A DNA stretch of 64,000 nucleotides from Deltaproteobacteria bacterium (GCA_016180845.1 JACPAK010000001.1:86836-150835), one strand, 5' to 3'. Counted from the stretch's first letter, positions 16,987 to 42,833 are shown. Notes: a model not told the origin generated them from the sequence alone. Program-made: numbers and translations.

Positions 16987-17333
16987 GGGGGCGAATTGGA
17001 TTCGACGAGAGTGCTGACGGCACCAGTCGCAGGTCGAGGTCGCTGGACCCTCGTTAAACACTGGCAAAAACCTAAATGACAATAGCGTAAGCTATGCCAT
17101 GGCTGCTTAATTAGCCGCCCGTTCTCAATGTCCGCTCCCACCGGGTGTTGATGGACGCAACATGTGGGATGCTCATCTGACCGGGACGCTGGGTCAGATG
17201 TTAAGACATACAGTGTCTGGTCTTCCGGCCCCGGTCTTGGAGGTCACCGGAAGATGAGAAACAAACCAAGGCTAAGCCTGTAGTGACTTTGCTCGATCAC
17301 CTTCGGACGCGGGTTCGATTCCCGCCGCCTCCA
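16987..17333 (+). ncRNA. ssrA: tmRNA (SsrA)
   Basis: 5' GGGGGCGAAUUGGAUUCGACG (tRNA-like domain) pairs with 3' ...GCGGGUUCGAUUCCCGC CGCCUCC A (T-arm plus acceptor). Internal tag ORF ggc aaa aac cta aat gac aat agc gta agc tat gcc atg gct gct taa at 17063-17110, giving (G)KNLNDNSVSYAMAA. Confidence 0.9.
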
Positions 17334-17398
17334 CAAAAAAATCGGCTCGAACCGTAATGAAGGAATCTTCACCGGTGGATCCGGATGTGGTAGCTTGA

Positions 17399-18553
17399 TC
17401 ATCTCCCTCGATAAAGGGCCGCAACTGGAATGCAGCGAATGTCTTCGATACTGTAATAATCTTCCCCCAAATAGAACAGGTATCCGCTCCTATTCTCTTT
17501 ATCCATACCAACAAACTCCTTGAGGTTGTTAATGTCTTTTCTGGAAGGGCGAAGGGTTGATTTTATTTCCACAGCCTTGAGTTTCTGATTTTCTACAAGA
17601 ATAAGGTCAATTTCAAAACCGGAGTTATTCTTATAAAAAAACAGCTGATCCGTTTTATAAAACCCAAGTTTCCGCCTTTTCTCGATTTCAGAGATAACGA
17701 AATTTTCCACAATCTGTCCCCTGCTACACTGCGTACCCAAAGCGGAGATCATCCCTGTATCACAATAATAGGATTTTGATCCCTTAACGTATCTCTTGGA
17801 AGGACCATGCTGATATCCTGCCAAAGTAAAACCCAAACCGGATTGATAGAGACTCTGTAAATATTTCTTTGCTGTAATGTGGTTTAAATTGGCCTCATGT
17901 CTGAAATTTTCAATCTGTGTAATGTTGCCGATGGAAAGGGCGTAATGATTCAACATGGCCCGCAGGCCCGTAACATCCTGTATATTGGAAAGTAGACTTA
18001 AGTCTCTGGTGAAGTAGGTATTGCGATAATTCTCCAATATTTCTTTTTTCTCTGTTTCATCTTTGGCCGAGACGACTTCTGGAAAACCACCATACTTTAA
18101 AAATGATTCTAATTTCCGCTGTGCTTGAAGGATTTGAGGGAGGGAAGCCTGATCTTCAAAAATGGAATGTGTTGGCTCACCGAATTCTTCCCCCCAACAA
18201 CAAGGGGGTAATTCCAAAATTTGTATGCGCCCCGCCAACGAGTCTGCCGATGCATCCAACAATCCGATTCGACTGGAACCGCTCATCAAAACAGTAGCCA
18301 CCTGTTCGTCGATGGAAAATTTTGCCGCAATCGTTAGCCTCGGAACACGCTGTATCTCATCGAGGATTACCTTGGGGTTACCTTCCAAAAGGGCCTTGGG
18401 GTCTTTCTCAGCCAAGGCGAGTACGTCCAGATCATCCAATGTCAAGTATTTGAAATCAGGGAAGTTTTTCTTTAAATACATGCTCTTTCCTGCCCTTCTA
18501 GGGCCTAAAATTAAAGCGCTTTTAGCAGGTTTTCTAAGCCATCTATCAAACAT
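17399..18553 (-). CDS. AAA-family ATPase (Walker A GPRRAGKS; AAA_14 + DUF4143-type architecture)
   Basis: 384 aa with a P-loop near the N-terminus and a C-terminal region typical of DUF4143 ATPases. Markedly AT-richer than flanking DNA. Lies 66 nt after the tmRNA 3' end. Confidence 0.65.
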   Translation of the reverse strand: MFDRWLRKPAKSALILGPRRAGKSMYLKKNFPDFKYLTLDDLDVLALAEKDPKALLEGNPKVILDEIQRVPRLTIAAKFSIDEQVATVLMSGSSRIGLLDASADSLAGRIQILELPPCCWGEEFGEPTHSIFEDQASLPQILQAQRKLESFLKYGGFPEVVSAKDETEKKEILENYRNTYFTRDLSLLSNIQDVTGLRAMLNHYALSIGNITQIENFRHEANLNHITAKKYLQSLYQSGLGFTLAGYQHGPSKRYVKGSKSYYCDTGMISALGTQCSRGQIVENFVISEIEKRRKLGFYKTDQLFFYKNNSGFEIDLILVENQKLKAVEIKSTLRPSRKDINNLKEFVGMDKENRSGYLFYLGEDYYSIEDIRCIPVAALYRGR

Positions 18554-18624: not shown

Positions 18625-21126
18625 TTAAGGAGCTTTTCCCATCCCAACCGACAGACACGACCCGGTCAGTTCCTCAATGAGATTGATCTTCAGATCATCG
18701 CCGATATTGCGAATCCGGAGTTGAGGGGTCGCATCCGGTTGGACTTCGATCGCCTCAAGTCGAAGTCGGAGCCGCTGACGGTCGAAGCCACAGGCAGCCG
18801 CCTCGCGGGGAAGGAGCGTCGGCTCTGATTCCTCGGCATCGATAAAAATCCTTTCAACAACCACACCACCCGCCTCACTGGGGGCCCTATCTTCAACACT
18901 CTCGACCGTCATCTGAATCGGCATCTTTTTCCGGACCCGGAAAGGAATCTTCACCGGTGGATCCGATAACGAAATCGCCGCCTGACCTGTCAACTCCCCT
19001 GAAAGAGACATGTGGTCAAAGAAGGCCTCCATCAATTCCAGAGAACCATCCTCGGCCGGTTGAATCTTCAGACGATGCCCCATAAAACGGGCATTCGTAA
19101 TATTTAAACGAAGATCGTTCCATCGCACAAAGGCCTGGTGTGTGGAAAAAACAGCCCCACCCGGATGTTCTGCGAGAATTTCAACCTCTCGACGTTGTGG
19201 GACGATCTGAACCGAGCCTTCGACATCCAGATCCGCTTCGGCAACCCTCGTTGAGAAAATTCCCTCACGACTCCTGTTACTGACCCGTAGACCAAGGGTT
19301 GGTAAATCGGCATGCAGCTTGGCATTGCTAATAGAAATACGAGTATGATTCGGATTTTTCTCATCGGAACCTATGGAGAGAGGCGCGATGCCGGCAAGGG
19401 GACGAAATTTAATCTGCCCTAATCCCTGAATAGCGCCATCTGGAAAGTGATACGAGACAACCCCATCCATCTGGCTCGTGATGATCCCCTCGAAGCGGGG
19501 TCTCCCATTCACAACCTGAAAGTGGACATCGGCCAGACCGGCCCCTTCGGGGATTTCATTCAACCACTTATGGTCTCCCTCGAATTGCCGTCGTTTTGCG
19601 ACAGTATGCAATGAAACCCCATGCCCATCATATTTGAGCTCGCCGGTTCGAAGCTGTTCAATCGAGACATCAGGGGTCAGACCATCAAGTCGGACGGTAA
19701 AATTCTTCACCTCACCACCTTGAGGGAGCTCCAGTTTGGAAAGGACCTTTCCGTTCGACCTCGAAATCTCTTCCAATTTTAATCCATCGTTATGATTCCA
19801 GCTAAAAGCAGCGGCAAGTTCCCTCGTATTCCGCGGATTCAGGGAAACCGCCACCTTCAGAGGGGTTGGGGTACGAGCGGTATTGCTGGCCCGAATCAGT
19901 CGCTCCGGATGGACGTATTCAATCGTCTTCAGACCGGCGATCTCGACTGTCGGTGAAAAAAGCCCACCGCGAATCGCAATCCGATGCCCCCCTGGCGGGA
20001 CCTTCCCCGTGAATTCAAGTCGCAACTTTCTCACCTTTTTTGGATCCATCCTTTTTTGAAGATCGGTCTCCAGATCGACCTCGATCGTGCGATTCGAAAA
20101 ATCACCGGTGATCTCGATGGTCGCTTGTTGCCAACGAGGGATTGTTCCCAAAAATTCTGAGTTGAGCTTTTTCTCTGTTTTGGCGGGTACATGAGCTGAA
20201 CTCTGAAATCCCCCCTTGCCCCCCTTTGACAAAGGGGGGTTGGGGGGATTTTCTTTCTCACTCCCCCCCAAAATCATCCCGACAAGCTGATGAAGATGCT
20301 CGGGGACGCGATAAACAGGAAGTCCCCTCTTCTCAAAATCCCTTTTCGTGATCCCACCGGCATCGAAGACCATCTTTCCCCCCTCCACCGTAAGATCAAA
20401 AAAGAGATAGTTCGCCGTGACGAAAACGGCCCTATCTGGCGTCTCCTGTTCCAATTTTTCACGATAGGACTCCACAAGAAGACCGGCCAACGGAAGGGCC
20501 GAAACCACCTGCAACCAGAGCGGGAGGATTTTTTTATCCTCATCAACCATCTCGACCGCTTTCCCACGTACAGAGACCCATGGGCCAACAATCGGAATAC
20601 CTGTAAAAAATTTTAGCCACGGCTTGAGCGGGATCGGACCGACCGGTGGTTTTGAGACAAGGCGAATCTCTCTGATTTCTCCTCCCTCCCCAACCTCAGC
20701 GACAAACTTGAGTTGGAAGGGGGACTGGGGGAGATCGGCCTCCAAGGGAAGTTGGACCTCGGCACGGATCTTCAAGTTCGGAACTGGCGAAGCTTCTCCA
20801 GATGCGGTTTCGAAAAGTCCTCGCACAAGTCGTTCGACAAAGGCGCTTCGCGGTTCCTCAACAACTGCTTTGTCCCGAAATCGCGCAGCGGAAACAGCAA
20901 CCGGGGGTCTTTCGCAATAAGGTTTTGAGGGAGTTGCTTGGCAATAATAATCTCTCTGACCGATCCCAAAGTGTTCCCTCGGAAGGTCCGAGAACCTGTC
21001 TGAGACCCACCTTGAAACCGAACGATTTTCCGCAGGGAAGCCTTGGACCGGAGGAAAATCGTTCGATGGTGCCGGGCGAGTTTCGCAGGACCTGGAGAGA
21101 GGACACGAGGGATCGGTCGGCCTCAT
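18625..21126 (-). CDS. large hypothetical protein (833 aa), beta-rich, no recognised domain
   Basis: Long uninterrupted ORF whose start overlaps the upstream gene's stop in an ATGA. An internal hydrophobic segment ILPLWLQVVSALPLAGLLV is present. Two in-frame palindromic repeat insertions. Confidence 0.5.
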   Translation of the reverse strand: MRPTDPSCPLSRSCETRPAPSNDFPPVQGFPAENRSVSRWVSDRFSDLPREHFGIGQRDYYCQATPSKPYCERPPVAVSAARFRDKAVVEEPRSAFVERLVRGLFETASGEASPVPNLKIRAEVQLPLEADLPQSPFQLKFVAEVGEGGEIREIRLVSKPPVGPIPLKPWLKFFTGIPIVGPWVSVRGKAVEMVDEDKKILPLWLQVVSALPLAGLLVESYREKLEQETPDRAVFVTANYLFFDLTVEGGKMVFDAGGITKRDFEKRGLPVYRVPEHLHQLVGMILGGSEKENPPNPPLSKGGKGGFQSSAHVPAKTEKKLNSEFLGTIPRWQQATIEITGDFSNRTIEVDLETDLQKRMDPKKVRKLRLEFTGKVPPGGHRIAIRGGLFSPTVEIAGLKTIEYVHPERLIRASNTARTPTPLKVAVSLNPRNTRELAAAFSWNHNDGLKLEEISRSNGKVLSKLELPQGGEVKNFTVRLDGLTPDVSIEQLRTGELKYDGHGVSLHTVAKRRQFEGDHKWLNEIPEGAGLADVHFQVVNGRPRFEGIITSQMDGVVSYHFPDGAIQGLGQIKFRPLAGIAPLSIGSDEKNPNHTRISISNAKLHADLPTLGLRVSNRSREGIFSTRVAEADLDVEGSVQIVPQRREVEILAEHPGGAVFSTHQAFVRWNDLRLNITNARFMGHRLKIQPAEDGSLELMEAFFDHMSLSGELTGQAAISLSDPPVKIPFRVRKKMPIQMTVESVEDRAPSEAGGVVVERIFIDAEESEPTLLPREAAACGFDRQRLRLRLEAIEVQPDATPQLRIRNIGDDLKINLIEELTGSCLSVGMGKAP
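20206..20252. repeat. family-1 palindromic repeat (aaatccccccTTGcccccctttgaCaaaggggggTTGgggggatttt), copy 1, intragenic and in frame
   Basis: Read directly. A near-identical copy sits at 63710-63760. Here it encodes ENPPNPPLSKGGKGG within the 833-aa ORF. Confidence 0.7.
21018..21066. repeat. family-2 hairpin repeat (13-14-bp arms ccgaacgattttcc / ggaaaatcgttcg around a 21-nt spacer), copy 1, intragenic and in frame
   Basis: Perfect inverted arms at 21019-21031 and 21053-21065. A second copy at 62277-62325 has the spacer in reverse-complement orientation. Here it encodes NDFPPVQGFPAENRS. Confidence 0.7.
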
Positions 21127-23948
21127 TGTTTATTCTCCAATGGCTTCCTTAACAACGACTCTCGAGTCAGTGGCAGCTTACTTCCACACCTCTTCAGATA
21201 AAACCACTTCCCATCTTTCTGAACCAATTCGACCTTATCTCCCAAAAGTGAAGCGGCCTGAGGATTCACAAAACCGGAGAAACAGAGACCACCGATCGTG
21301 TCTGTTCGTAACTGGCCCCCACGGATCCTTGCCGGCTCATTCAAAAGAACCTCAATGCCTCGAGCAAGAGTAAATTCTCTTCTCTTTTTCCCTATCCAGC
21401 TCCTAAACCCAACCTCCCCATGAACAAAACCGCTTGGATTTTTTTGAGGACGAATGGATCTCCTCTTTAAATCGAAGGGGATAGCGAGACCCCCTTCAAT
21501 CTGAGTCGTCACAACATACTGATCGGGTGATTCTCGATTGTAAATCCACAATTTGAGGGATGATGCCGCCGGTCTTGACAAAAAGCTCACGGCACCATTT
21601 CGGACAGAGAATTGCCCACGGTAATCCAACGCTCCCTGGCCCCAGAAAGGATGCCTCGTTGTTGGTTCAATCCCAAAAAAGGCCCTAAAACCCTCTTCGT
21701 GCCATGGGATCAGCAATTTGCCATGAAAATTGACCTGATCTCCGACAGATCCTTTCGCACAAAAGAGCTCCGCTCTTCTATTGTTCCCCTCCCAAACACA
21801 GTTGAGATCACCCACAACCCTCTCTCCTCCCCTGTAAATGTTAGAGGGGGTACGAACCGTCCGGAAGGATGAGTCTTGCTTCACCCCATTGAGAATCTCC
21901 GTCTTCCCCTCCGGCTTAAATTTCACCTCTCCCTCCGTAAATCCACGAAAGGTCCAGTCAGAAAAAATCTGTTCGAAGGCTGGGACAATTTTTAACCGAA
22001 TGGTTTCAAAATCACTCGAACCAAAGAGGGCCGTCGCCAAACTCACCACGGGCGAAGCGGCTGGCTGATTATTGAGTGACAAATGACCATCCCAGGTCAT
22101 CCGACAGGAGTTTCCTTCAGGCTCGGCCCAAAGCTGCCCACCGGAATCAAAAACCAATTCCTGTTTGAATAACGGGACCGACTCTGCCTGGAGATTAACG
22201 AGGAGGTGAGGCCCATGCCCCGGCTCCGGAGGGACCCCGCTAAGTGACGCCCGAATCCCACGAACTTCATAAGGAGTCCCCCCCTCTGAGGTCACTCTCA
22301 GATTGGCCTCTGCCTCCGCCTTCAACGTGATGAGGTTCAAAGGCGATCGGACCCGCACCACGAGGTCCGAAAAATCAAGATTGTTCTTCGGTCCATGCGA
22401 AAAGGCGAACCCCCGAAGCTCAATCTCCTCGCTCATCGGCCCCTCGACCCGATCAGGGTCGTAGTCAAAAGAGACATAACCGTCTTCCACCAGACCGCCC
22501 GTCATCGTTTCGCCTACCTGAAATTGAATCGGTCCCCCATCTGCCGATCCAATCGCAAGCTCATCGATTTCGAGCCAACTCCTCTGTAAAACAGGTTTGT
22601 CTCCAGACAGGTCCAACTGAACAGAGCTATTCAGGCGACCCGACGAGCGAAGAGATCCCAACTGAGAGGTTGGAATATTTTCCACAACATACTCGAGATT
22701 ATCGAAATAGATTTCGGCAAGATTCGGATGTCGCAGGACAATCTCGATCTCGCCTCGAAGGGCCAACGGTACCGATGTGGGAAGGGTCACATCAATATCC
22801 GACAGGACGATGGAGGTTGTTTTATCCGCTGCATTGTACGACCAATGCAGATCAAGCGTCCCTTCCGCATTTGGAATCAGGAGACTCGCCGGAAGTTTTG
22901 GGAAATTGGCGTAAGAATCCCCCTTGATCCCCTCAAAATCAAACTTGAGGAAACGTCCGGATTTTAAGGTTTCCATCAATCTCTGCCAATCAAGATGAAG
23001 GTAGCTCCTCCCGACAAGCTCATGGTTTGGTGGAGGTCTCGAATCAACCGTAATCTGTAAATCATCGAGGGTCCCGATGGGACCCTGGACCCATTTGGAA
23101 CGCTCGCCAAACCACTCCTCAATGACCTGTCTCAAGCCTGACGAGTCCTGATCGACCCAGCTTCCCATGAGCGCCTTCAAAAATCGGCGACCAAAAGATT
23201 CTTTGTAAACGGCATTTTGCCTCTGTACTGAAAATGGCTGGGGATCGCTCCTCTCTGCTGGATCAGGATAGGCGGTCAAAGCCCTCGTCCTCGGTATCGG
23301 TGTCAAAAGAGATCGCCCGAGACCGAACAAATTCAACCCCTCGGTCACCTTGACTGTCGGGAGTCCCCGATGTGCGAGATGCGGAACAACGAGTCGCGCC
23401 TGATCTGTTTCAGAAAACCTGCTGACAAAGATATCTGAAAATCGTCTCTTCCTCCTCGTCAGCCCCGCCACATCAAAACCGTAAAAAACCTCAAGCCCAT
23501 CGGTCCAAACATCCCCATCGATCTTGAACGTGTCATATCGAGACCGAGCGTTGAAGGCGAGCTCCGCCCCCTCATCCCAAGTCACATCTCCCGTCCAGCT
23601 ATCCCTTTCGACCCTTCCCTCATGAAATCTTGCCCTCACGTAATAATCGTGATTCCCAAAAAAATGATAGGTGATCGGTAAGGATCTCCGAAAGCTCATC
23701 GGCTCTCGGCGGTCGAGAAGTTTCTCCACTATCCCTTGTTTCGTTGGATAGGCAAAACCGGCTTGCTCAGCAGCTACTGCAAAGAGATCAAGCAGACTCC
23801 TGTTCGGTGTCTCAGGAGGAGCTGCGTCAAAGGCAGAACAAAAAAGGTCTTCGAAACGAGAAGGTGCGGGGGAACCATTGACCGTAGCTGTCACACCCAG
23901 ACAATCGGGTGCGATCGGAAGGAGGTTGCTACCGAAACCGAAGCACAA
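21123..23948 (-). CDS. large hypothetical protein (941 aa), no recognised domain (isolated GNHD tetrapeptide only)
   Basis: Long ORF whose start overlaps the 3' end of the MFS gene. ATGA coupling to the 833-aa gene downstream. Confidence 0.5.
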   Translation of the reverse strand: MCFGFGSNLLPIAPDCLGVTATVNGSPAPSRFEDLFCSAFDAAPPETPNRSLLDLFAVAAEQAGFAYPTKQGIVEKLLDRREPMSFRRSLPITYHFFGNHDYYVRARFHEGRVERDSWTGDVTWDEGAELAFNARSRYDTFKIDGDVWTDGLEVFYGFDVAGLTRRKRRFSDIFVSRFSETDQARLVVPHLAHRGLPTVKVTEGLNLFGLGRSLLTPIPRTRALTAYPDPAERSDPQPFSVQRQNAVYKESFGRRFLKALMGSWVDQDSSGLRQVIEEWFGERSKWVQGPIGTLDDLQITVDSRPPPNHELVGRSYLHLDWQRLMETLKSGRFLKFDFEGIKGDSYANFPKLPASLLIPNAEGTLDLHWSYNAADKTTSIVLSDIDVTLPTSVPLALRGEIEIVLRHPNLAEIYFDNLEYVVENIPTSQLGSLRSSGRLNSSVQLDLSGDKPVLQRSWLEIDELAIGSADGGPIQFQVGETMTGGLVEDGYVSFDYDPDRVEGPMSEEIELRGFAFSHGPKNNLDFSDLVVRVRSPLNLITLKAEAEANLRVTSEGGTPYEVRGIRASLSGVPPEPGHGPHLLVNLQAESVPLFKQELVFDSGGQLWAEPEGNSCRMTWDGHLSLNNQPAASPVVSLATALFGSSDFETIRLKIVPAFEQIFSDWTFRGFTEGEVKFKPEGKTEILNGVKQDSSFRTVRTPSNIYRGGERVVGDLNCVWEGNNRRAELFCAKGSVGDQVNFHGKLLIPWHEEGFRAFFGIEPTTRHPFWGQGALDYRGQFSVRNGAVSFLSRPAASSLKLWIYNRESPDQYVVTTQIEGGLAIPFDLKRRSIRPQKNPSGFVHGEVGFRSWIGKKRREFTLARGIEVLLNEPARIRGGQLRTDTIGGLCFSGFVNPQAASLLGDKVELVQKDGKWFYLKRCGSKLPLTRESLLRKPLENKQ

Positions 23949-25125
23949 TCAGGGCACTCAGTGTCGTCAATCCCCCCAAGGCCCAGAGGGTCATCGGAAG
24001 TCCCCAACTATCCGTGATCCATCCCAAGACAGGGGCAATTACGACAAAGAGGAGATGCTGTAAAAAATCCTGGGTCGAAAGGACGGTCGCCCTCCTCTCC
24101 GAAGAGATCAATTGATTGACCGCCTGACTCGTCATTGGGAGAAACAGACCCCAGATAAAGTAGACAAGACTCGCAAGAAGAAAGGAAAAGGGGTGGTGGA
24201 TGAGGGCAAGCGCTGAAAGCGTCAGGGTAAAGAAAAAGGCGAGCAGAAAGAAATTCCCCCTTTTCAGAAAACGGTTTGGAAGATGCCTGGCCAATTGACT
24301 TCCCCCCATGCTGGCCATTTGGAAGAAAAGGAAGACCAAGCCAAAGTAGGCGAGAGGGACCCCCACCTCCTTCAGGTAGGGTTGAATAAGGGTTACAATA
24401 AAAACGAGGATCGTCGTGAAAAGGAGAGAATAGTAACCGACCATGGTTCTCAGATTTTTCGAACCGGATCGTATCTCACGAACACCCATCAGAAACGACT
24501 CGGCCCCCGCTGACGCCGTCTTTCTCGTCTTGGGGGGCTCGTGAAGGGTAATCGCAACAATCGCCGCCACCAGGAAGGCGATTGCCGAAAGGAAAAATGG
24601 GAGCCTCCCCGAAAAAATATAAACAGACCCTCCGATTAACGAGGCAATCCCCATCCCGACGAATTCAAAAAACTTCCCTTGGGCATAATCGACCTGATAC
24701 CGATCGCTGACAGCCCTGTTCTCCAAAAAATTAAAGAGATAGGCCTCCTTGGAGCCGGTATAGAAGGCCTGCCCTATCCCCATGAAAATCTCGCCGACAA
24801 CCGCCATTCCGATATGGAATGGAAAGGCGAGGAAGATGACACCGATCGATTGAAAAAGACCGCAGAACATCATCGCCCATTTATGGCCAAAATGATCCGA
24901 GAAGAGACCACTCGGGATCTCGGCAATTGTCACGGAGAGGAAAAAGATACTGATGAGGATCGTTACCTGAAGTTGTGTAAACCCGTGGGCCTGAAACCAC
25001 AAAACCAAAATCGGGATGAAAAAATAGAGTCGTGACAAAAACGAGTGAAAGACATAGGGTTTGACTGTTGGGGCTTTGGGCATTCGAATGTTTTTTTTCT
25101 TAAAACTATTTTTTGTTGTTGTCAT
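23929..25125 (-). CDS. MFS transporter
   Basis: About 12 TM helices with MFS-like loop motifs. The start may be the internal Met (MPKAPTV...) near 25083. Confidence 0.7.
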   Translation of the reverse strand: MTTTKNSFKKKNIRMPKAPTVKPYVFHSFLSRLYFFIPILVLWFQAHGFTQLQVTILISIFFLSVTIAEIPSGLFSDHFGHKWAMMFCGLFQSIGVIFLAFPFHIGMAVVGEIFMGIGQAFYTGSKEAYLFNFLENRAVSDRYQVDYAQGKFFEFVGMGIASLIGGSVYIFSGRLPFFLSAIAFLVAAIVAITLHEPPKTRKTASAGAESFLMGVREIRSGSKNLRTMVGYYSLLFTTILVFIVTLIQPYLKEVGVPLAYFGLVFLFFQMASMGGSQLARHLPNRFLKRGNFFLLAFFFTLTLSALALIHHPFSFLLASLVYFIWGLFLPMTSQAVNQLISSERRATVLSTQDFLQHLLFVVIAPVLGWITDSWGLPMTLWALGGLTTLSALIVLRFR

Positions 25126-26050
25126 CTCTCTTTCCGCTTCGGTCGCTCACGCTGATCAGAATGTTGGATACGACCGTGGAATAAAGGGAAAGGAACGGAG
25201 CTGGATCCCGGCAGAGGGGTGTACCCTGAAACCCTGTGTCATCACCCAGTGGGGTGCGATCCGACTCCCCAAAGAGTTTGCGAGAACCTATCGTATCGAG
25301 ATGGGGGGACTTCATCGGGGAAATTTCAGATCGATCGCTATTTTTCAGGAAAGTTCCTCTTTTGAACAAAAACTCTCCGAACGGGTTTTCAACCGCCAAC
25401 CGAACCGAAAGATCGTGAATCTGGAGCGTCTGATCGAGACGGGAAAAACCAACACCATTTATATGTACGGTCTCCTCCTGCAGTATGAGTTTGACGAGGG
25501 AGACCTCCTCGGCATTAAATTCACCTCACTCAAAAATCCGAATAACGTTCAGGAATATTTCTTTCGTTATCACCATGACGGAACCAAGTGGGATATCGAC
25601 TTCGCCTTTATCCAGCCGATTAATATCTTTCATCCCAATCCGAATGGAGTCCTGCGCGCCGCCTACTCGACAGGCGCCCTCTCCTTCTCCTTTGCACGGG
25701 CGATGGATCCGGACAAACATTACAGTTTTCTTTCGAAGGCGATGCGGGCAGTCCGTGTGAACCTCTTCACGGGAATTCTGCTCCGACGCGAGGTCGCCCC
25801 ACTCAATGGCGACAATATCGTCGAGGACCGGATCGATGCCTTTGGGGGACTTGGTCTCACCTTCCTCGATTTTATCGCCTTGGGCTATGGTGGGACGATG
25901 GCCAATTCCCCACGCACCACCTTCCCCTTTGTCGGGATCGAGATCCGCCACCTCATGGAATTCCTCCGAACCCTGAAAAAGGACACCCACAGCCGCTGGC
26001 AGCGGTATCTGAAGGAGGAAATGGAAAGGACAAGTTCAGAGAAGTTTTGA
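25088..26050 (+). CDS. secreted hypothetical protein (signal peptide MFFFLKLFFVVVISLSASVAHA)
   Basis: Cleavable-type signal peptide and no recognisable domains. May be a beta-barrel or periplasmic protein. Confidence 0.45.
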   Translation: MFFFLKLFFVVVISLSASVAHADQNVGYDRGIKGKERSWIPAEGCTLKPCVITQWGAIRLPKEFARTYRIEMGGLHRGNFRSIAIFQESSSFEQKLSERVFNRQPNRKIVNLERLIETGKTNTIYMYGLLLQYEFDEGDLLGIKFTSLKNPNNVQEYFFRYHHDGTKWDIDFAFIQPINIFHPNPNGVLRAAYSTGALSFSFARAMDPDKHYSFLSKAMRAVRVNLFTGILLRREVAPLNGDNIVEDRIDAFGGLGLTFLDFIALGYGGTMANSPRTTFPFVGIEIRHLMEFLRTLKKDTHSRWQRYLKEEMERTSSEKF

Positions 26051-27091
26051 AAGGATCTTTCGATTCATCGATGAGGTTGGGAATCGATCGATCTCCTCCG
26101 GATGAATCCATTGAGATTTCATTCGTGGAATTCGGCTCATTTGGCAGAGATAAGGGGTAATGACTAATCTCTTATTCAAAACAGAGTGCCGAATCGATCC
26201 CAAAGCACGAATCGGTCTGAAACCGAAATCCCTGACTAATCTCTCAGCCCCCCCCTCCACCATCGGAAATTCCCACATCTCTTTCAAGATCCCCTTCGCA
26301 GGCCTGCGAACCATGAGGAGAGAATCACCTTTTTGAATCAAGGCTGCCGTCATCGTGATCTTCTGAGCAGGAGCCCTTTTTGCCAATCGTGGATACAGAT
26401 CCTGTCTCCCCTTTTTACGCGCCTCACACTCATCGTAGACAGGGCAGACCAAACAGGCGGGTCGTCTCGGTGTACAAATTGTCGCACCGAGTTCCATGAG
26501 CGCCTGATTAAAATCGCCAACATCCCTATCGGGCAAAATCAGCGCGGCGAGACCCCAAAAGATCTTCTGGCCTGCAGGACTTTTGGGATCACTTCCGATC
26601 AAAAAGAGTCGTGACAGGACCCGAACCACATTCCCATCGACTACCGGGACCCTTTCCCCAAACGCGATCGAGGCAATCGCCCCGGCGGTGTAGCGACCGA
26701 TGCCGGGGAGTTGCTGCCAGTCTATTCGCTCGGACTGGCAAAGCCAGATCCTCGCTTGATTCGAGAGAGATACCGCTCTCCCTCGAGCTCCCATCTGATC
26801 AACGATTATCTTAGCTGCCTTCAATAGATTCCTCGCTCGCGAATAGTACCCGAGCCCCGACCAATACCGTAGCACCTCATCCTCTTCTGCCACTGCAAGT
26901 GATTCGATCGTCGGAAATCGTTTCAAAAATTTCTCATAATACGGAATCACCGTCTCGACCGTCGTCTGCTGGAGCATGATCTCCGAAACCCAGATCCGGT
27001 AAGGGTCTTTCGTCTTACGCCAAGGGAGGTCTCGTCGATGGGTGCGATACCAGTGAAGAAGCTTGTCTCCCCCGCGAAACTTTTTCATCAT
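26036..27091 (-). CDS. mutY: A/G-specific adenine DNA glycosylase MutY
   Basis: HhH-GPD motif LPGIGRYTAGAI, the FeS cluster cysteines CTPRRPACLVCPVYDEC, and a C-terminal NUDIX-like domain. Confidence 0.85.
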   Translation of the reverse strand: MMKKFRGGDKLLHWYRTHRRDLPWRKTKDPYRIWVSEIMLQQTTVETVIPYYEKFLKRFPTIESLAVAEEDEVLRYWSGLGYYSRARNLLKAAKIIVDQMGARGRAVSLSNQARIWLCQSERIDWQQLPGIGRYTAGAIASIAFGERVPVVDGNVVRVLSRLFLIGSDPKSPAGQKIFWGLAALILPDRDVGDFNQALMELGATICTPRRPACLVCPVYDECEARKKGRQDLYPRLAKRAPAQKITMTAALIQKGDSLLMVRRPAKGILKEMWEFPMVEGGAERLVRDFGFRPIRALGSIRHSVLNKRLVITPYLCQMSRIPRMKSQWIHPEEIDRFPTSSMNRKILSKLL

Positions 27092-28491
27092 TGCTGAGGA
27101 TTATTATTGGGAGGTGTTGGGTCAACGACCGTTTGTGAAATCTCTGTCGCGGTGACTGCTGCCCCGGAGACAGGTGTGAAGGAGGTATTAATCTTGAATG
27201 TGGTGTCTCCGTTGATTTCAGCGGGAAGTTGGAAGGCGACATTTTTTGAAATCTCGGCTCCTTTGGCAAGATTTGACATACACTCAATCTTCTGCCCCAG
27301 ATTGTTACACCCTTCAGGAGTCGATTGAATCGTAGAAGAGCCGGTCAATTCGACAATCAATTTTGCCCCTGTCAGATCCCTCTGACTGTTATTGCGAGCG
27401 AGTGCGCGAACAGTCACCGTCTGGCCGAGACCCAAGGATCCTGAGAGAATGGAGTGTTCCACAACCAACTCAGGTTGTTTTTCGACCTTGAAGAGGTGTT
27501 TATGGAGGGTAATGGTTTGATCGTCCGGACAAATCGCTGCCGGAGTAAAGGCAATCTCCCCCGAGGCGCGATCATTTAATTGGAGACAGACCGGATCACA
27601 CTTGATCTCCCCTCCCGGAATTCCTGTCGACCCACCGGTGGAAGAGGGCATGTCTACCGGAATCGTCATCTGCCGTGTCACGACATCAAACTGGAGTCCT
27701 CCTTGAGGGGAACCGCACGGCTCCAACCCTTCGGGAAGGGCAAAAGGTTCCAATTTGCATCGCACGGGGTAACAAACCGAGGCGTTGGTCCGCTCACCCA
27801 CCGTCATTGTCTTGGTCTCAGGGACAGCGATCTTGGCAATGATCTTGTCATATTTCGGAGCAACCGCGACATTGATCTCCACAACACCTATCCCCTCACG
27901 ACAGGCCTCCAAGGCACCCACCTGTTGTTTCACCCCAGAATCTGTTGTCGTCGTTTTGGAATCTGATGTGTCAGCTTTTTCGTCAGTCGTCTTTTTCTGA
28001 TCCTCGTTTCCTGAACCTTGCTGGCTTCCGGAGGTTGTCTCACCGGATGTCGTACCGCCTGATGCTGTTTGACCCGACTGCTGCTGGCTTCCCCCTGCCG
28101 TCCCCTGATTCGTCTCTAACGCCGCGAGTTGAACTTGCTGTGGTCTCGGCAAAATCGCAACTGCCTGAGAGATCAGCGAGGCCTGCTGGATCTTCACACA
28201 ATACTTGGCCTTTCCCGGGGTTTTGGCCTCTGTTGAATTTCCTGAATCTCCAGAAGGTTCGATCTTCGACGGATCAATTTCCAGTTTAAACTTTCCATCC
28301 CGATCGGTCACCACGTCTCCATGGGCCTTTCCTTCGCGATTGACCGAGATGATAACACCAGCCAAGACAGGTTCGGTCTCTTCCTTGTTAAGATTATTGT
28401 TTTCATCGAGATAGATCTGACCGTTTATCACGGTGCCACAACCGGCTGTCAGGAGGATAAAAAGGGAAATTCCAAGAAGTCGCCTATCCAT
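27088..28491 (-). CDS. lipoprotein with carboxypeptidase-regulatory-like domain, S/T/Q-rich linker and DUF11-like C-terminal repeat
   Basis: Lipobox LLTAGC after MDRRLLGISLFI. Start chosen at the internal ATG at 28491. A low-complexity TAGGSQQQSGQTASGG segment is present. Confidence 0.5.
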   Translation of the reverse strand: MDRRLLGISLFILLTAGCGTVINGQIYLDENNNLNKEETEPVLAGVIISVNREGKAHGDVVTDRDGKFKLEIDPSKIEPSGDSGNSTEAKTPGKAKYCVKIQQASLISQAVAILPRPQQVQLAALETNQGTAGGSQQQSGQTASGGTTSGETTSGSQQGSGNEDQKKTTDEKADTSDSKTTTTDSGVKQQVGALEACREGIGVVEINVAVAPKYDKIIAKIAVPETKTMTVGERTNASVCYPVRCKLEPFALPEGLEPCGSPQGGLQFDVVTRQMTIPVDMPSSTGGSTGIPGGEIKCDPVCLQLNDRASGEIAFTPAAICPDDQTITLHKHLFKVEKQPELVVEHSILSGSLGLGQTVTVRALARNNSQRDLTGAKLIVELTGSSTIQSTPEGCNNLGQKIECMSNLAKGAEISKNVAFQLPAEINGDTTFKINTSFTPVSGAAVTATEISQTVVDPTPPNNNPQQ

Positions 28492-28513
28492 CACGGTTTG
28501 AGAGTATACAGAC

Positions 28514-29539
28514 TTATGTCTCCTTCTGCAAGTAAACTGTCCGAACGGGAAACGGGATCGAGATCCCTTCCTTCTGATAACGCTGATGGAGCCTCTTGAT
28601 GAATTCATGTTTGAGCAGGAACTGATCGGTATATTCCCGAGCCCTGAGAGCGACGGAAAAATTAATACTCGAATCCCCAAAGGTATGAAAGCGAACCACC
28701 GGTTCGAATCCCGGAATACCCCCCGTCACCGATTTCATCACGTCTCGCGCAATCTCGACTGTCACTGTCTCCACCTTTTCCAATGAACTGGAATAATCAA
28801 CACCCACGTCAACCGTGAAGGCCATCTCCTTATCGGGGTAATGGTAGTTCGTAATGACACTGCCGGACAATTTAGAGTTCGGAATGACAACGATATTGTT
28901 CGGAAGAAGCCGAATCCGGACCCCCCTCCAGCCGATCGACTCAACGTAACCGCAATCACCTGATTCGAGCTTCACGAAGTCCCCCACTCGAACCGGCTTG
29001 TCGATCAGGATGTAAAATCCTGAGAAAAGGTTAGCGAGCGCATCCTGTAGGGCCAAGGCAATTGCGATACTCCCCACACCCAGTGAAGCGATGATCGGCG
29101 TGATCGAGATCCCCGCCGTATCCAGGAAGATCAGCAGAAAAAGGGCATAGACGCCGATCGTGATAAAAACACGAATCAGGCTGGAATAATTTTTAAAAGA
29201 CTCGTGATTCGAAACATAGCGACGATGGAGCTCGAGAAGGATCTTCTGAATAAAGAGGGCAAACCCGAAGATCGCAAGGAGCCGCGCCAAGAGTCCGATT
29301 GTCCTTTGCCAATTATCAGAAAGGGACAAAAAAGGTGGGAGAAGCCCAACCACTCCAGCCAACAAAAAAAGCGTGACGGGCCGATCCAACGCCTCAACAA
29401 TCAGATCATCCCATTTCCCTTCCGTCCGTTCGGTCCATTTTCTGAGCAAACGAAAGATAAATTTCTTAAGCAGAAAGAGGACAACGGCACCCGCCGGAAT
29501 AATAAGGAGCGAACCCCACTGAGGTAGATCGTGTGACAT
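28514..29539 (-). CDS. mechanosensitive ion channel, MscS family
   Basis: TM3 and beta-domain signature GVGSIAIALALQDALANLFSGFYILIDKPVRVGDFV. Confidence 0.85.
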   Translation of the reverse strand: MSHDLPQWGSLLIIPAGAVVLFLLKKFIFRLLRKWTERTEGKWDDLIVEALDRPVTLFLLAGVVGLLPPFLSLSDNWQRTIGLLARLLAIFGFALFIQKILLELHRRYVSNHESFKNYSSLIRVFITIGVYALFLLIFLDTAGISITPIIASLGVGSIAIALALQDALANLFSGFYILIDKPVRVGDFVKLESGDCGYVESIGWRGVRIRLLPNNIVVIPNSKLSGSVITNYHYPDKEMAFTVDVGVDYSSSLEKVETVTVEIARDVMKSVTGGIPGFEPVVRFHTFGDSSINFSVALRAREYTDQFLLKHEFIKRLHQRYQKEGISIPFPVRTVYLQKET

Positions 29540-31915: not shown

Positions 31916-32626
31916 ATGAGATTACGAACTTTACTGGGTATCGCAGCTGGCCTTGGAGGAGGTGCAGCCCTGTTAACTGTAGCATACCAGCGGCGACAGG
32001 CCGCTTCTCGTGAAATTCATAAGATGATGATCAGTCGGGATAGGATCAATTTTTATGTCAGCGATGTCAGCTATGGAAGGCCGTGTGTGAGCTCAGATGG
32101 AGGAGACTCAAACAGGACTTATTACAGCAGGACTTATTACAGTCAGATCGTCGGTAGCGCCCTCGCCCCTCATGAGCCTACCTATATCACTCCTAAAGGT
32201 TCGGAACCTACTTGCGGGTGGACTAATGAAACATATGAAGTGACTGATCCTCATCGACAAATATTCGAAACCGCCCAACGTCATTGGGGTCGCCTACAAA
32301 AGTTTTTTACCTTAACTGAAATCCGCTTGGCCTCATCCTGCCATCCCCTGACCGAGGCCGATTGGAGAGATCAACTTCACTTGAAACCGGAACCGATCGT
32401 TGACTCGGCGGTGATCTGTAAATTGGGCGCGTCACAAGCCCAACCCAATGGCGAGGCAACAGTTGTCGTAGAGTCTTTACACAATGGACGCAGCTTCTCA
32501 ACCCGCGTTTATCTGAATGTCGACGGCGCCCCTCAACCTCCTCTTGTCTGGATGGACGACTCTTGGTCTACCAATGTCAAGAAGGTGAGGGAACTACACG
32601 CCACAGGATCGTCGGGAAACGACTAA
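31916..32626 (+). CDS. hypothetical membrane-anchored or secreted protein
   Basis: RBS AAGGAGG precedes the ATG at 31916. N-terminal hydrophobic segment LLGIAAGLGGGAALL. No known domain. Confidence 0.45.
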   Translation: MRLRTLLGIAAGLGGGAALLTVAYQRRQAASREIHKMMISRDRINFYVSDVSYGRPCVSSDGGDSNRTYYSRTYYSQIVGSALAPHEPTYITPKGSEPTCGWTNETYEVTDPHRQIFETAQRHWGRLQKFFTLTEIRLASSCHPLTEADWRDQLHLKPEPIVDSAVICKLGASQAQPNGEATVVVESLHNGRSFSTRVYLNVDGAPQPPLVWMDDSWSTNVKKVRELHATGSSGND

Positions 32627-34194
32627 AGAAGCCGCTCGTACTGCTCAATCCCATACTTCCAAACCGGCACGCCGCAGTACCGATCCCCCTCGGGACAGTA
32701 CGGTTTGATCCCCGCCCCTTTTCTTAAATAACAAGGGGCAAGGATATGTCGTGCAATCCGCGGATGGATCTCCTGCACCTGTTTCAGTTCATCGATCGTC
32801 GCGAAGAAGATCTCCTCTTGCGCATCGTAACAGGCGCGCGTGCGCCATTTATGATGCAGATTCAAGAGATCCCCCGACTCCTGAAACCGGATCGGAAAGG
32901 CGTTCGGCAAGAGGTAGAGCGCGAATTCAGGAGAGACCCCATCACTCAAGAGATCATTGATCCCTCGGAAAATCTTCCGCATCGCCTCTTCGTAAACTTG
33001 TCGAGGCCCGTCGTTCTCCCGAATCAGCATTGGCGAAATATAATCCGGCTCTCCGGTATAATGAGCGAACAGGATCGGGCGCGAGGCCGGGGTCATCCGG
33101 TGACGTTGATCCTGCGAGTCAGCGGTATGCGAGATCTTTTTCTGAAAGGTGTAGTGAGGATGGGCCATCGTCCGTGTCAGCTTGGAGAGCGTTGTGAGAT
33201 TGAGCGTATCTCCAAAATAGGAATTCTTTGCCGGATTCATAACAAGATCGATCGCCTCATCATCGACAAGTTGCGCTTTGAAAAGGCCCAGCACCTCCCG
33301 CACCGACTGGGCTAGGACCGCCTCGGCGTTTGATTTGTAGTCAACGAGCCTTGAATCATGCCCGTCGAGAGATTGATCAAACTCCCGGATAAATTCCTTA
33401 TTTCTTGCGGGATTAAATCTGCCAAATTTTTCTGAAAAGAACCGGTACTCAGGCGTCTCTTCCAGAGGAATTGGATCTTTGAGCTCCTTTTTAAAATCAG
33501 GATCCGCCTCGCAGACCGCATCAACCATCTTCTGGACCACATAACGCTGCTCAAAAGGGGTATCGAACAATTCTGACAATCGGTAGTAGCGCAAAAGTGT
33601 CAGGGCACTTACCGTATGGTACATGTAAGAATGTGTCGCGACCGGCAGGATATACCGAGCGATTTCATAGGCCCGTTTTTTCAGTTTCGCTTCGTAAATC
33701 TTTTCTGACTTTTCCCGTGCCGGAAAAATTTTAAAGAATCTTCGCCGAATATCCGGAAGAAGAAGCTCAATGAGTCGATTATAGGTCTCCATCTGGAGGT
33801 TGACGACCTCAAGATACCGATCCTTCTGCCGATCCTTGAGTGGAGGGATCGTGAAATGGCCGGGGGCGACCTTCACGTATCTCTGACTCACCTGTTCTGA
33901 ATTGTAAAAAGGATGGCTGTGCAGAAACGACCAGATGAAGTGGCGTGAAATTTTATCGAGCGCAAAGACAAAACTTCCATGCTGCCGGGTTGTCAGATGT
34001 CCCGCCTCGAGGGTTGACTTCGCAATCTTATCCCGAAGCGCAAGGGCCGCTGAATCCTTAACGACATCCGCCGTCGTCAGGATCCCCTTCGAGGAGTAAC
34101 AGGTCCTCGCCGCAGCGATAGAGAGATTGTATGGTTCCCCAATAAACCCAGCTAAGGTAACAACAGGTGGCTCTGAGAGGAAGACTTCTGTCAT
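32623..34194 (-). CDS. thyX: FAD-dependent thymidylate synthase ThyX, long (523-aa) form
   Basis: ThyX signatures AARTCYSS, GH..T..HGSFVF and the RH...S....SQRY motif (ISRHFIWSFLHSHPFYNSEQVSQRYV). Confidence 0.7.
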   Translation of the reverse strand: MTEVFLSEPPVVTLAGFIGEPYNLSIAAARTCYSSKGILTTADVVKDSAALALRDKIAKSTLEAGHLTTRQHGSFVFALDKISRHFIWSFLHSHPFYNSEQVSQRYVKVAPGHFTIPPLKDRQKDRYLEVVNLQMETYNRLIELLLPDIRRRFFKIFPAREKSEKIYEAKLKKRAYEIARYILPVATHSYMYHTVSALTLLRYYRLSELFDTPFEQRYVVQKMVDAVCEADPDFKKELKDPIPLEETPEYRFFSEKFGRFNPARNKEFIREFDQSLDGHDSRLVDYKSNAEAVLAQSVREVLGLFKAQLVDDEAIDLVMNPAKNSYFGDTLNLTTLSKLTRTMAHPHYTFQKKISHTADSQDQRHRMTPASRPILFAHYTGEPDYISPMLIRENDGPRQVYEEAMRKIFRGINDLLSDGVSPEFALYLLPNAFPIRFQESGDLLNLHHKWRTRACYDAQEEIFFATIDELKQVQEIHPRIARHILAPCYLRKGAGIKPYCPEGDRYCGVPVWKYGIEQYERLL

Positions 34195-42454: not shown

Positions 42455-42807
42455 GAGAGCTGGTCGGGCAACTACGCTTTCAAGCCTTGTTGCAAAAGGT
42501 TTGGAGTGAGGAAAGTCCGGGCTCCACAGGACGCCGCACAGGTTAACGACCTGGCATCGCGAGATGACGGAAAGTGCAACAGAAAGTATGTACGGTCCGC
42601 CGTAGCTTTAGCGAAGGCGGATGCTGTAGTGAAATCCGGTAAACCCTGCGGGGAGCAAGATCAAGTAAACCGTACCCCTAAAACCCATTGGTCCGATGGG
42701 GTTCCTGAAAAGGACGGTACGGAGGGTTGATCGCTAGAGGCGTTTGGTAACAAACGTCCCAGAGGAATGGTTGCCGAAGACAGAACCCGGCTTATAGACC
42801 AGCTCTT
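42455..42807 (+). ncRNA. rnpB: RNase P RNA, bacterial type A
   Basis: P1 pairing GAGAGCUGGUC ... GACCAGCUC. Universally conserved GGAAAGUCCGGGCUCCACAGG (P4 region), AGUGCAACAGAAAGUA, UAAACCCUGCGGGGAGCAAG and the 3' ACAGAACCCGGCUUA. Confidence 0.9.
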
Positions 42808-42833
42808 ATTTTCCTTTCTCTATTTTCTTAAGA

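Follow-up and report, generated by a model that had tools for sequence, protein, structure and literature searches.

This work concerns big1 and big2, two adjacent genes in a stretch of 64,000 nucleotides (nt) from Deltaproteobacteria bacterium (GCA_016180845.1 JACPAK010000001.1:86836-150835); the whole stretch is called the window here, and all coordinates refer to it unless another locus is named. It is well supported that big1 and big2 form a vertically inherited, lineage-restricted and coupled pair encoding large, non-enzymatic and strand-rich proteins, and equally well supported that neither protein carries conserved export or membrane signals. As to what the pair does, we tentatively propose, with a probability of about 0.35, that the two proteins form a non-enzymatic heteromeric complex at the cytoplasmic side of the inner membrane, which in the clade of the window would be associated with a transporter of the major facilitator superfamily (MFS).

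Gene Layout and Pairing Across Eight Lineages

An earlier note on the window had described an operon in which an MFS transporter gene and the genes for two giant, translationally coupled proteins of 941 and 833 amino acids (aa) overlap at their start and stop codons. The listing of open reading frames (ORFs) places all three minus-strand ORFs at the coordinates claimed there (Table 1), and an operon-like block of three genes is supported as real, although proteins of 830-940 aa are large rather than giant. The ATGA junction between big1 and big2 is present as described, but an overlap of the MFS gene with the 941-aa frame exists for the longest ORF alone, that is, if TTG 23948 is taken as the start; the 20-nt MFS/big1 overlap seen earlier is a consequence of that choice. 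The probable true start of big1 is GTG 23894, which yields a protein of 923 aa, the version deposited as database protein P0001, and which coincides with the GTG start of the orthologue in L001 when the two are aligned. Given this alignment, the gap between the MFS stop and the big1 start probably amounts to 34 nt. For big2, ATG 21126 is preferred because there is no in-frame ATG, GTG or TTG from M1 up to V101, coding-type (third-position) conservation with the orthologue starts by S79 at the latest, the two indels that distinguish the 5' regions of the window and L002 (9 and 57 nt) are each a multiple of three, and the ATG that shares bases with the upstream TGA is also kept among lineages. 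The 733-aa big2 called by NCBI (P0003) is probably too short. A scan for promoters and terminators gave the same counts as shuffled sequences.

TABLE 1. Features of the window discussed in the text, in window coordinates.
Feature	Position	Strand	Remarks
MFS transporter gene	23929-25125	-	398-aa longest ORF; alternative ATG 25083 gives 384 aa
big1	21123-23948	-	Longest ORF 941 aa from TTG 23948; probable start GTG 23894 (923 aa)
GNHD tetrapeptide	23646-23657	-	big1 residues 98-101 (941-aa ORF numbering); not a conserved motif
GGAG	21135-21138	-	Shine-Dalgarno-like; 8 nt 5' of big2 ATG, within big1 3' end
ATGA overlap	21123-21126	-	big1 stop codon/big2 start codon; predicted translational coupling
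big2	18625-21126	-	833 aa, ATG start at 21126
big2 insertion	20422-20538	-	Clade-specific, about residues 197-235; holds the sole hydrophobic stretch of big2
Repeat element A	20206-20252		G/C-rich palindrome, in frame as NPPNPPLSKGGKGGF, variable big2 linker
Repeat element B	21007-21065		Hairpin with stem of about 15 bp, in frame, big2 codons 21-40
tmRNA	16987-17334	+	Full length by Rfam, 172.7 bits
AAA_14/DUF4143 ATPase	17399-18553	-	Beside tmRNA; GC 0.46-0.47; PADLOC PDC-S01, E = 1e-68
329-aa protein	25061-26050	+	Strong signal peptide; divergent from MFS gene
530-aa ORF	27088-28680	-	Between mutY and MscS-type channel gene; no Pfam match
ThyX	32623-34194	-	Double length, 523 aa, two Thy1 stretches
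RNase P RNA, bacterial class A	42456-42810	+	214.8 bits

Eight independent lineages were recovered, namely the window, L001/L002, L003, L004/L005, L006, L007/L008/L009, L015 and L016. Those in which an orthologous MFS gene stands directly 5' of big1 on the same strand make up clade A (window, L001/L002, L003 and L006), and those in which the big1-big2 pair lacks such an orthologue make up clade B (L004/L005, L007/L008/L009, L015 and L016). In 8/8 lineages big2 lies directly 3' of big1, and a big2 homologue of about 700-830 aa directly follows every big1 relative for which the downstream DNA is readable. The stop/start overlap of the two genes recurs in seven of the eight lineages, as ATGA in six (window, L002, L003, L007, L015 and L016) and as TGATG in L004; in L006 a gap of 17 nt takes its place. 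Most lineages also have a purine-rich, Shine-Dalgarno-like motif about 6-9 nt 5' of the big2 ATG, which reads GGAGG in L004, L015 and L016 and GGAG in the window; it is weaker in L003 and L007, and L002 has a G-rich run only. The recurring overlap supports the earlier claim that the two large proteins are translationally coupled, and by these sequence hallmarks translation of big2 is coupled to termination of big1 in what would be a textbook case. ATGA coupling together with a Shine-Dalgarno-like motif suggests that the two proteins are synthesized in roughly equimolar amounts.

In two clade B lineages, a gene for a hydrophobic protein of about 165 aa is situated directly 5' of big1 on the same strand (L015 7294-7812 and L016 52-543), at the position that the MFS gene occupies in clade A. 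The two proteins are 54% identical. Present in L015 and L016 only, this membrane protein was rejected as a member of the system.

Two Orphan Protein Families Under Purifying Selection

The earlier note had found no recognizable domains in the two large proteins and could not place them in any described system, and at the level of sequence both statements hold. Pfam searches with 16 aligned family members at E <= 10 gave single chance matches only, NCBIfam gave no match for big1, big2 and nine relatives, PHROGs none for big1, big2 and four relatives, and PADLOC none for the window's big1, big2, MFS transporter or 329-aa protein. Profile searches of PDB sequences with alignments A1, A3, A5, A9 and A10 returned nothing below E = 0.1. 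The two proteins are not related to each other either (hhalign probability 0.2%). Among 5.8 billion proteins, a word-indexed search retrieved, for big1 and big2 alike, only the self-match and one orthologue. When 1.84 billion cluster representatives were scanned in full by HMMER with a profile of big1, 10 proteins reached E <= 1e-3; nine of these (816-933 aa) can be aligned end to end, and the tenth is a fragment of 297 aa. Scans of genome collections matched one metagenome-assembled genome (MAG), which was already among the known ones; one metagenome scan was empty and a second gave two loci. Orthologues with identities as low as 17-30% still align over the full length of big1 and big2. As far as these searches reach, neither family extends beyond a single uncultivated lineage, represented by MAGs that bear the label 'Deltaproteobacteria bacterium' or 'bacterium', and by elimination both are considered new families. 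Conserved families without known function are common in uncultivated lineages.

The ratio of non-synonymous to synonymous substitution rates (dN/dS) against the closest orthologues is 0.16 for big1 (L001 orthologue) and 0.14 for big2, compared with 0.09 for the MFS gene and 0.08 for the neighboring 329-aa gene, all four ratios being approximate because dS is saturated. Non-synonymous rates of big1 and big2 are about twice those of the neighbor genes. Protein identities between the window and L003 or L006 amount to 29% and 21% for big1 and 32% and 30% for big2, and to 58% and 53% for the MFS transporter and 60% and 58% for the 329-aa protein. The divergence of the pair tracks that of its neighbors, which points to vertical descent. 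Judged by these comparisons, the pair consists of two real genes, each translated on its own and each subject to purifying selection. The earlier note had raised frame artefacts of one disrupted gene as an explanation that would overturn its description; a dN/dS of about 0.15 and a conserved overlap contradict this.

The genomic context is also conserved. In L004, mutY lies directly 5' of big1; in the window, as in L006, only two genes separate mutY from big1, those for the 329-aa protein and the MFS transporter. Genes for ThyX, a GATase and a short-chain dehydrogenase recur near the pair at both of these loci, and nearby nuo genes are common to the window and L004. With 0.50-0.53, the GC content of the three genes equals the window average. 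By synteny, then, the pair is inherited vertically in a conserved housekeeping neighborhood next to mutY.

Sequence Features, Localization and Fold

Hydropathy confirms that the two large proteins have no obvious signal peptides, as neither begins with a hydrophobic segment. Within residues 1-50, the maximal value (KD12) is at most 1.6 in 10 big1 and at most 1.1 in six big2 proteins, vs 2.6-2.9 in the secreted 329-aa neighbor, and neither a hydrophobic N-terminus nor a transmembrane (TM) segment was detected by hydropathy in 10/10 big1 and 5/6 big2 proteins. The internal hydrophobic segment attributed earlier to the 833-aa protein does exist near residue 200 (KD19 = 2.03), but it is not conserved: the insertion that contains it is gapped in L003, L004, L006 and L007, four of the five other lineages aligned, and the equivalent stretch in P0004 reaches at most 1.35 on the same scale, which is the maximum of the whole P0004 sequence. 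On the alignment, the stretch is not a conserved membrane segment. The GNHD tetrapeptide, the other landmark of the earlier note, is likewise present at residues 98-101 of the 941-aa protein but conserved among close relatives only; across the big1 alignment the position reads GNHD, GDHD, GNQD, DGKK, TYDV and others.

Invariant alignment columns consist mostly of Gly and Pro, to which big1 adds Ala, and its near-invariant columns mainly Asp; those of big2 also include a few Arg, His, Glu, Ser, Phe, Ile and Leu and one Cys. A catalytic-type polar residue invariant across the family was found in neither the big1 nor the big2 alignment. Columns dominated by Gly and Pro are what the turns of a strand-rich fold would produce, and speak less for a catalytic site. 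The short beta-strand-like patterns noticed earlier are real, since decapeptides in which hydrophobic and polar residues alternate occur more often than in shuffled sequences (z = 2.2 and 3.7). The suggested likeness to beta-helical repeat proteins found no support: windowed hhalign self-comparison gave the self-diagonal only, without internal repeats, and Pfam repeat families had no match in the 16 family members. AlphaFold2 models, one per protein and made from two-sequence alignments, reached a mean predicted local distance difference test (pLDDT) of 30.4 and 33.9; at this low confidence (pLDDT 30-34) they consist largely of long strands (10-16 residues) joined by tight turns. When the models were compared with the PDB by Foldseek, there was no match at E <= 1e-3 (TM score < 0.25), and the scattered rows for TamAB, LptD, MucB and BPI are noise from poor models.

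The big2 protein seems to be composed of several parts. In five lineages its N-terminus reads M-x-C-(R/G/Q), the window having MRPTDPSC and L002 MRSC, and is followed by about 80-100 disordered residues rich in Pro, Ser and Gly. The body is strand-rich and contains the motifs GDFSN, HRIT and GLK. Two Cys of the C-terminal module, C779 and C824 in window numbering, are kept in all full-length members. As for the cell that hosts these proteins, the lineage has two membranes, related contigs having genes for OmpA, LolA, MlaD and an OMP beta-barrel.

The MFS Transporter and Its Link With big1

That the gene upstream of big1 encodes an MFS transporter is clear from a Pfam MFS_1 (PF07690) match over residues 34-351 of the 398-aa protein (E = 7.3e-27; 94.6 bits, cutoff 33.4). 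Nine hydrophobic segments of the window protein exceed a strict hydropathy threshold, which fits the usual 12-helix MFS layout, and the window protein and its orthologues have 8-11 strong hydrophobic segments and a polar stretch at about residues 196-225. Hydropathy thus agrees with about 12 TM helices arranged in two halves around a central loop, as expected for a member of the superfamily. An assignment to a subfamily or substrate did not result, for the top NCBIfam match, TetA(P) (1e-11), scores 44 bits vs a cutoff of 750, and matches to PDB sequences are weak and generic (STP10 1e-7, partial; NorA 8e-3).

Orthologues of this transporter with 53-77% identity are encoded directly 5' of big1, on the same strand, in L001/L002, L003 and L006. 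The linkage is kept in four lineages though big1 has diverged there to 21-29% identity. An MFS gene near big1 in L007 was considered as an equivalent of the window gene and rejected, the sequences being unrelated. The fixed triad of MFS, 941-aa and 833-aa genes that the earlier note had envisaged does not hold, since the MFS gene belongs to the block in 4/8 lineages and the big1-big2 pair on its own in 8/8.

At one locus the transporter and big1 share a single frame as assembled. L001 and L002 come from two MAGs with identical big1 proteins and are otherwise identical across this locus, but relative to L001 a 78-nt in-frame deletion in L002 takes away the end of the MFS gene (its final codons and the stop) and some of the spacer that follows, yielding a single MFS-big1 ORF of 1,200 aa (L002 788-4390). 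According to the established MFS topology, a 12-TM protein with a positively charged N-terminus has its C-terminal end in the cytoplasm. The fusion in L002 could reflect true variation between strains or else a fault of assembly; in the former case, big1 is attached to the transporter's C-terminus, on the cytoplasmic side.

At its other end, the MFS gene meets the divergent 329-aa gene head to head (25081-25125 / 25061-25090), the inner ATGs being 4 nt apart (CATtcgaATG); use of the outer MFS ATG would create a 38-nt overlap with the 329-aa gene. Head-to-head starts of the two genes are also found in L001 (4 nt apart), L003 (16 nt) and L006 (2-nt overlap). With such starts, the promoter of either gene must be situated within the other one, unless the mRNAs are leaderless.

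A Proposed Complex and Its Alternatives

In the mechanism we propose, big1 and big2 would be made in roughly equal amounts and would assemble into a non-enzymatic, beta-strand-rich heteromeric complex that remains at the inner membrane's cytoplasmic side. In clade A, this complex would be co-expressed with the 12-TM MFS transporter and would probably dock on its cytoplasmic face, and the role of big1-big2 would be that of an accessory or scaffolding module of the transporter rather than that of a transported substrate. Confidence seems to fall from the heteromer to residence at the cytoplasmic face, and further to joint action with the MFS transporter in clade A. Several observations weigh against the proposal. 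Complex formation is deduced solely from gene order and coupling, the MFS link is missing in 4/8 lineages, both structure models are unusable (pLDDT 30-34) and their Foldseek matches noise, and the L002 fusion is one observation from one MAG that could stem from an assembly error or a non-functional variant. Furthermore, the C-terminal Cys pair and the M-x-C of big2 fit an oxidising extracytoplasmic site or a modification site equally, and proteins without a Sec signal could still be exported by another route.

Indeed, big1 and big2 could be leaderless exported proteins of the envelope or surface, of an adhesin, surface-layer or toxin-like kind, whose fast evolution reflects exposure to the environment. 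Such proteins would account for the twofold non-synonymous rates, for a strand-rich and non-enzymatic composition, for the two invariant Cys near the big2 C-terminus and for the disordered Pro-rich N-terminal linker of big2. We consider this rather unlikely, as there is no signal peptide or Tat motif, the eight neighborhoods contain no type I, V, VI or IX secretion genes, adhesin-type repeat domains are lacking, and the MFS-big1 fusion variant argues for the cytoplasm.

The earlier note had also found the proteins loosely reminiscent of AsmA/TamB. Read in this way, they would be repeating beta-groove lipid-transfer proteins, perhaps exchanging lipids with an MFS lipid flippase, and we regard this as quite unlikely. 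A TM anchor or signal peptide at the N-terminus, part of the AsmA/TamB plan, is absent in every member (0/16), and none of the 16 matches AsmA, AsmA_2, TamB/DUF490, DUF748 or DUF3971 at E <= 10. There is no TamA-like partner gene, profile self-comparison shows no internal repeat periodicity, the L002 fusion puts big1 on the cytoplasmic side, and the Foldseek matches to TamAB and LptD have TM scores < 0.25 and probabilities < 0.2, in a fold comparison that rests on low-confidence models. What the two groups share is large size (800-1,300 aa), a predicted richness in amphipathic strands, a lack of catalytic motifs and a diderm lineage; the enriched alternating hydrophobic/polar patterns, the long strands of the low-confidence models, invariant residues that are mostly Gly, Pro and Asp, and a membrane transporter as neighbor in a two-membrane lineage point in the same direction. 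Because anchor and profile match both fail, AsmA/TamB could apply as a 'works like' idea only.

A still more speculative thought, to which we give little credit, is that big1-big2 might constitute a so far unseen large beta-sheet machine at the cytoplasmic face, for example a leaderless bridge-like conduit feeding an MFS flippase or exporter. It may be likened to the eukaryotic bridge-like lipid-transfer proteins that are paired with scramblases. The cargo of such a conduit would be a lipid or another hydrophobic compound, and one possibility is that the M-x-C of big2 would serve as a site of attachment or modification.

Independently of any conduit, the proposed association of the big1-big2 complex with a transporter resembles other cases in which an MFS gene stands beside, or is fused with, a gene for a non-membrane protein, such as LplT-Aas and YajR with its C-terminal YAM domain. 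In contrast to these, big1 and big2 are far larger, have no acyltransferase or other recognizable domain, form a coupled pair and occur without the MFS gene in half of the lineages. They also share a narrow range, conserved gene order, purifying selection and the lack of Pfam or PDB relatives with other lineage-restricted unknown families of uncultivated bacteria, but they differ from these in their unusual length, strict pairing, ATGA overlap and the M-x-C N-terminus of big2. If a defined complex forms, it would represent a new bacterial protein architecture of about 1,750 residues, strand-rich and with no sequence link to described families, and its fold, once solved, could prove truly new or could mark the pair as a distant branch of a family already known from the envelope or from lipid handling. 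For the present, big1-big2 are well-supported conserved unknown genes and not a demonstrated new mechanism.

The position of the block, which the earlier note had described as next to a tmRNA-adjacent islet, invites a different explanation: the tmRNA gene is indeed followed by a low-GC gene for an AAA_14/DUF4143 ATPase. tmRNA genes are classic integration sites, the adjoining ATPase matches the PADLOC candidate PDC-S01 and lies in DNA of lower GC content, and big1 and big2 evolve fast, all of which might mark the pair as cargo of a mobile or defence island. This is very improbable, and we reject it on grounds of synteny, GC content and the lack of an integrase. The pair stands beside mutY or in the same housekeeping neighborhood in L004 and L006, the three genes do not deviate from the window in GC content, big1 and big2 have no PADLOC or PHROGs match, there was no sign of an integrase ORF or of a directly repeated tmRNA 3' end, and the divergence of the pair follows that of the neighbor genes. 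Finally, an annotation artefact, whether spurious long ORFs or a single gene split by a frameshift, is refuted by the comparative data: database annotation does not go beyond 'hypothetical protein', the NCBI version of big2 is shorter and big2 of L002 is broken into pieces of 622 and 126 aa, but the ratio of about 0.15, two ORFs kept separate in eight lineages with a conserved overlap, full-length family alignments and the lack of mutual similarity between big1 and big2 leave such an artefact a negligible likelihood.

Neighboring Genes and Repeat Elements

The secreted 329-aa protein belongs to a well conserved family, with 33 relatives at >= 45% identity, and has no Pfam, NCBIfam or PDB match. 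It was tried as a member of the system and rejected, because its family occurs in five other neighborhoods of the same lineage without the pair; it is a neighbor and not a component. A 325-aa gene near big1 in L007 was likewise rejected as its counterpart, the two being unrelated.

The tag peptide that ARAGORN reads from the tmRNA (VKTYSVWSSGPGLGGHRKMRNKPRLSL) is unusually long and atypical, which suggests that the resume codon might be mis-assigned. A gene of the AAA_14/DUF4143 family is also present in L006, about 3.5 kb 3' of big2. The window's ThyX has a double-length counterpart in L006 (521 aa), so that a tandem-duplicated flavin-dependent thymidylate synthase is encoded at both loci. 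In the 530-aa ORF, a hydrophobic stretch begins after about 75 N-terminal residues, and a long low-complexity region is rich in Ser, Thr, Gly and Gln.

Two repeat families had been reported to have invaded the 833-aa gene, and a palindromic element of each is found there. Element A has a second copy at 63709-63755, with four strand-matches vs 0.01 expected, and its hairpin has a predicted energy of -33.9 kcal/mol (z = -4.0); at the corresponding position, big2 of L002 has a shorter and different linker. The second copy of element B is inverted (62279-62337). At element B, the window and L002 agree in 93% of positions over 141 nt, vs 55-75% in the flanking coding DNA. The hairpin of element B in big2 has -30 kcal/mol (z = -2.0), the second copy a z of -3.9, and a compensatory change in the stem, from U-A to C-G, distinguishes the two. 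A single radical-SAM ORF (61850-63769, minus strand) contains the second copies of both elements, one within an interdomain linker and the other at the extreme N-terminus. By their presence in ORFs of the window, elements A and B resemble the in-frame palindromic elements of Rickettsia.

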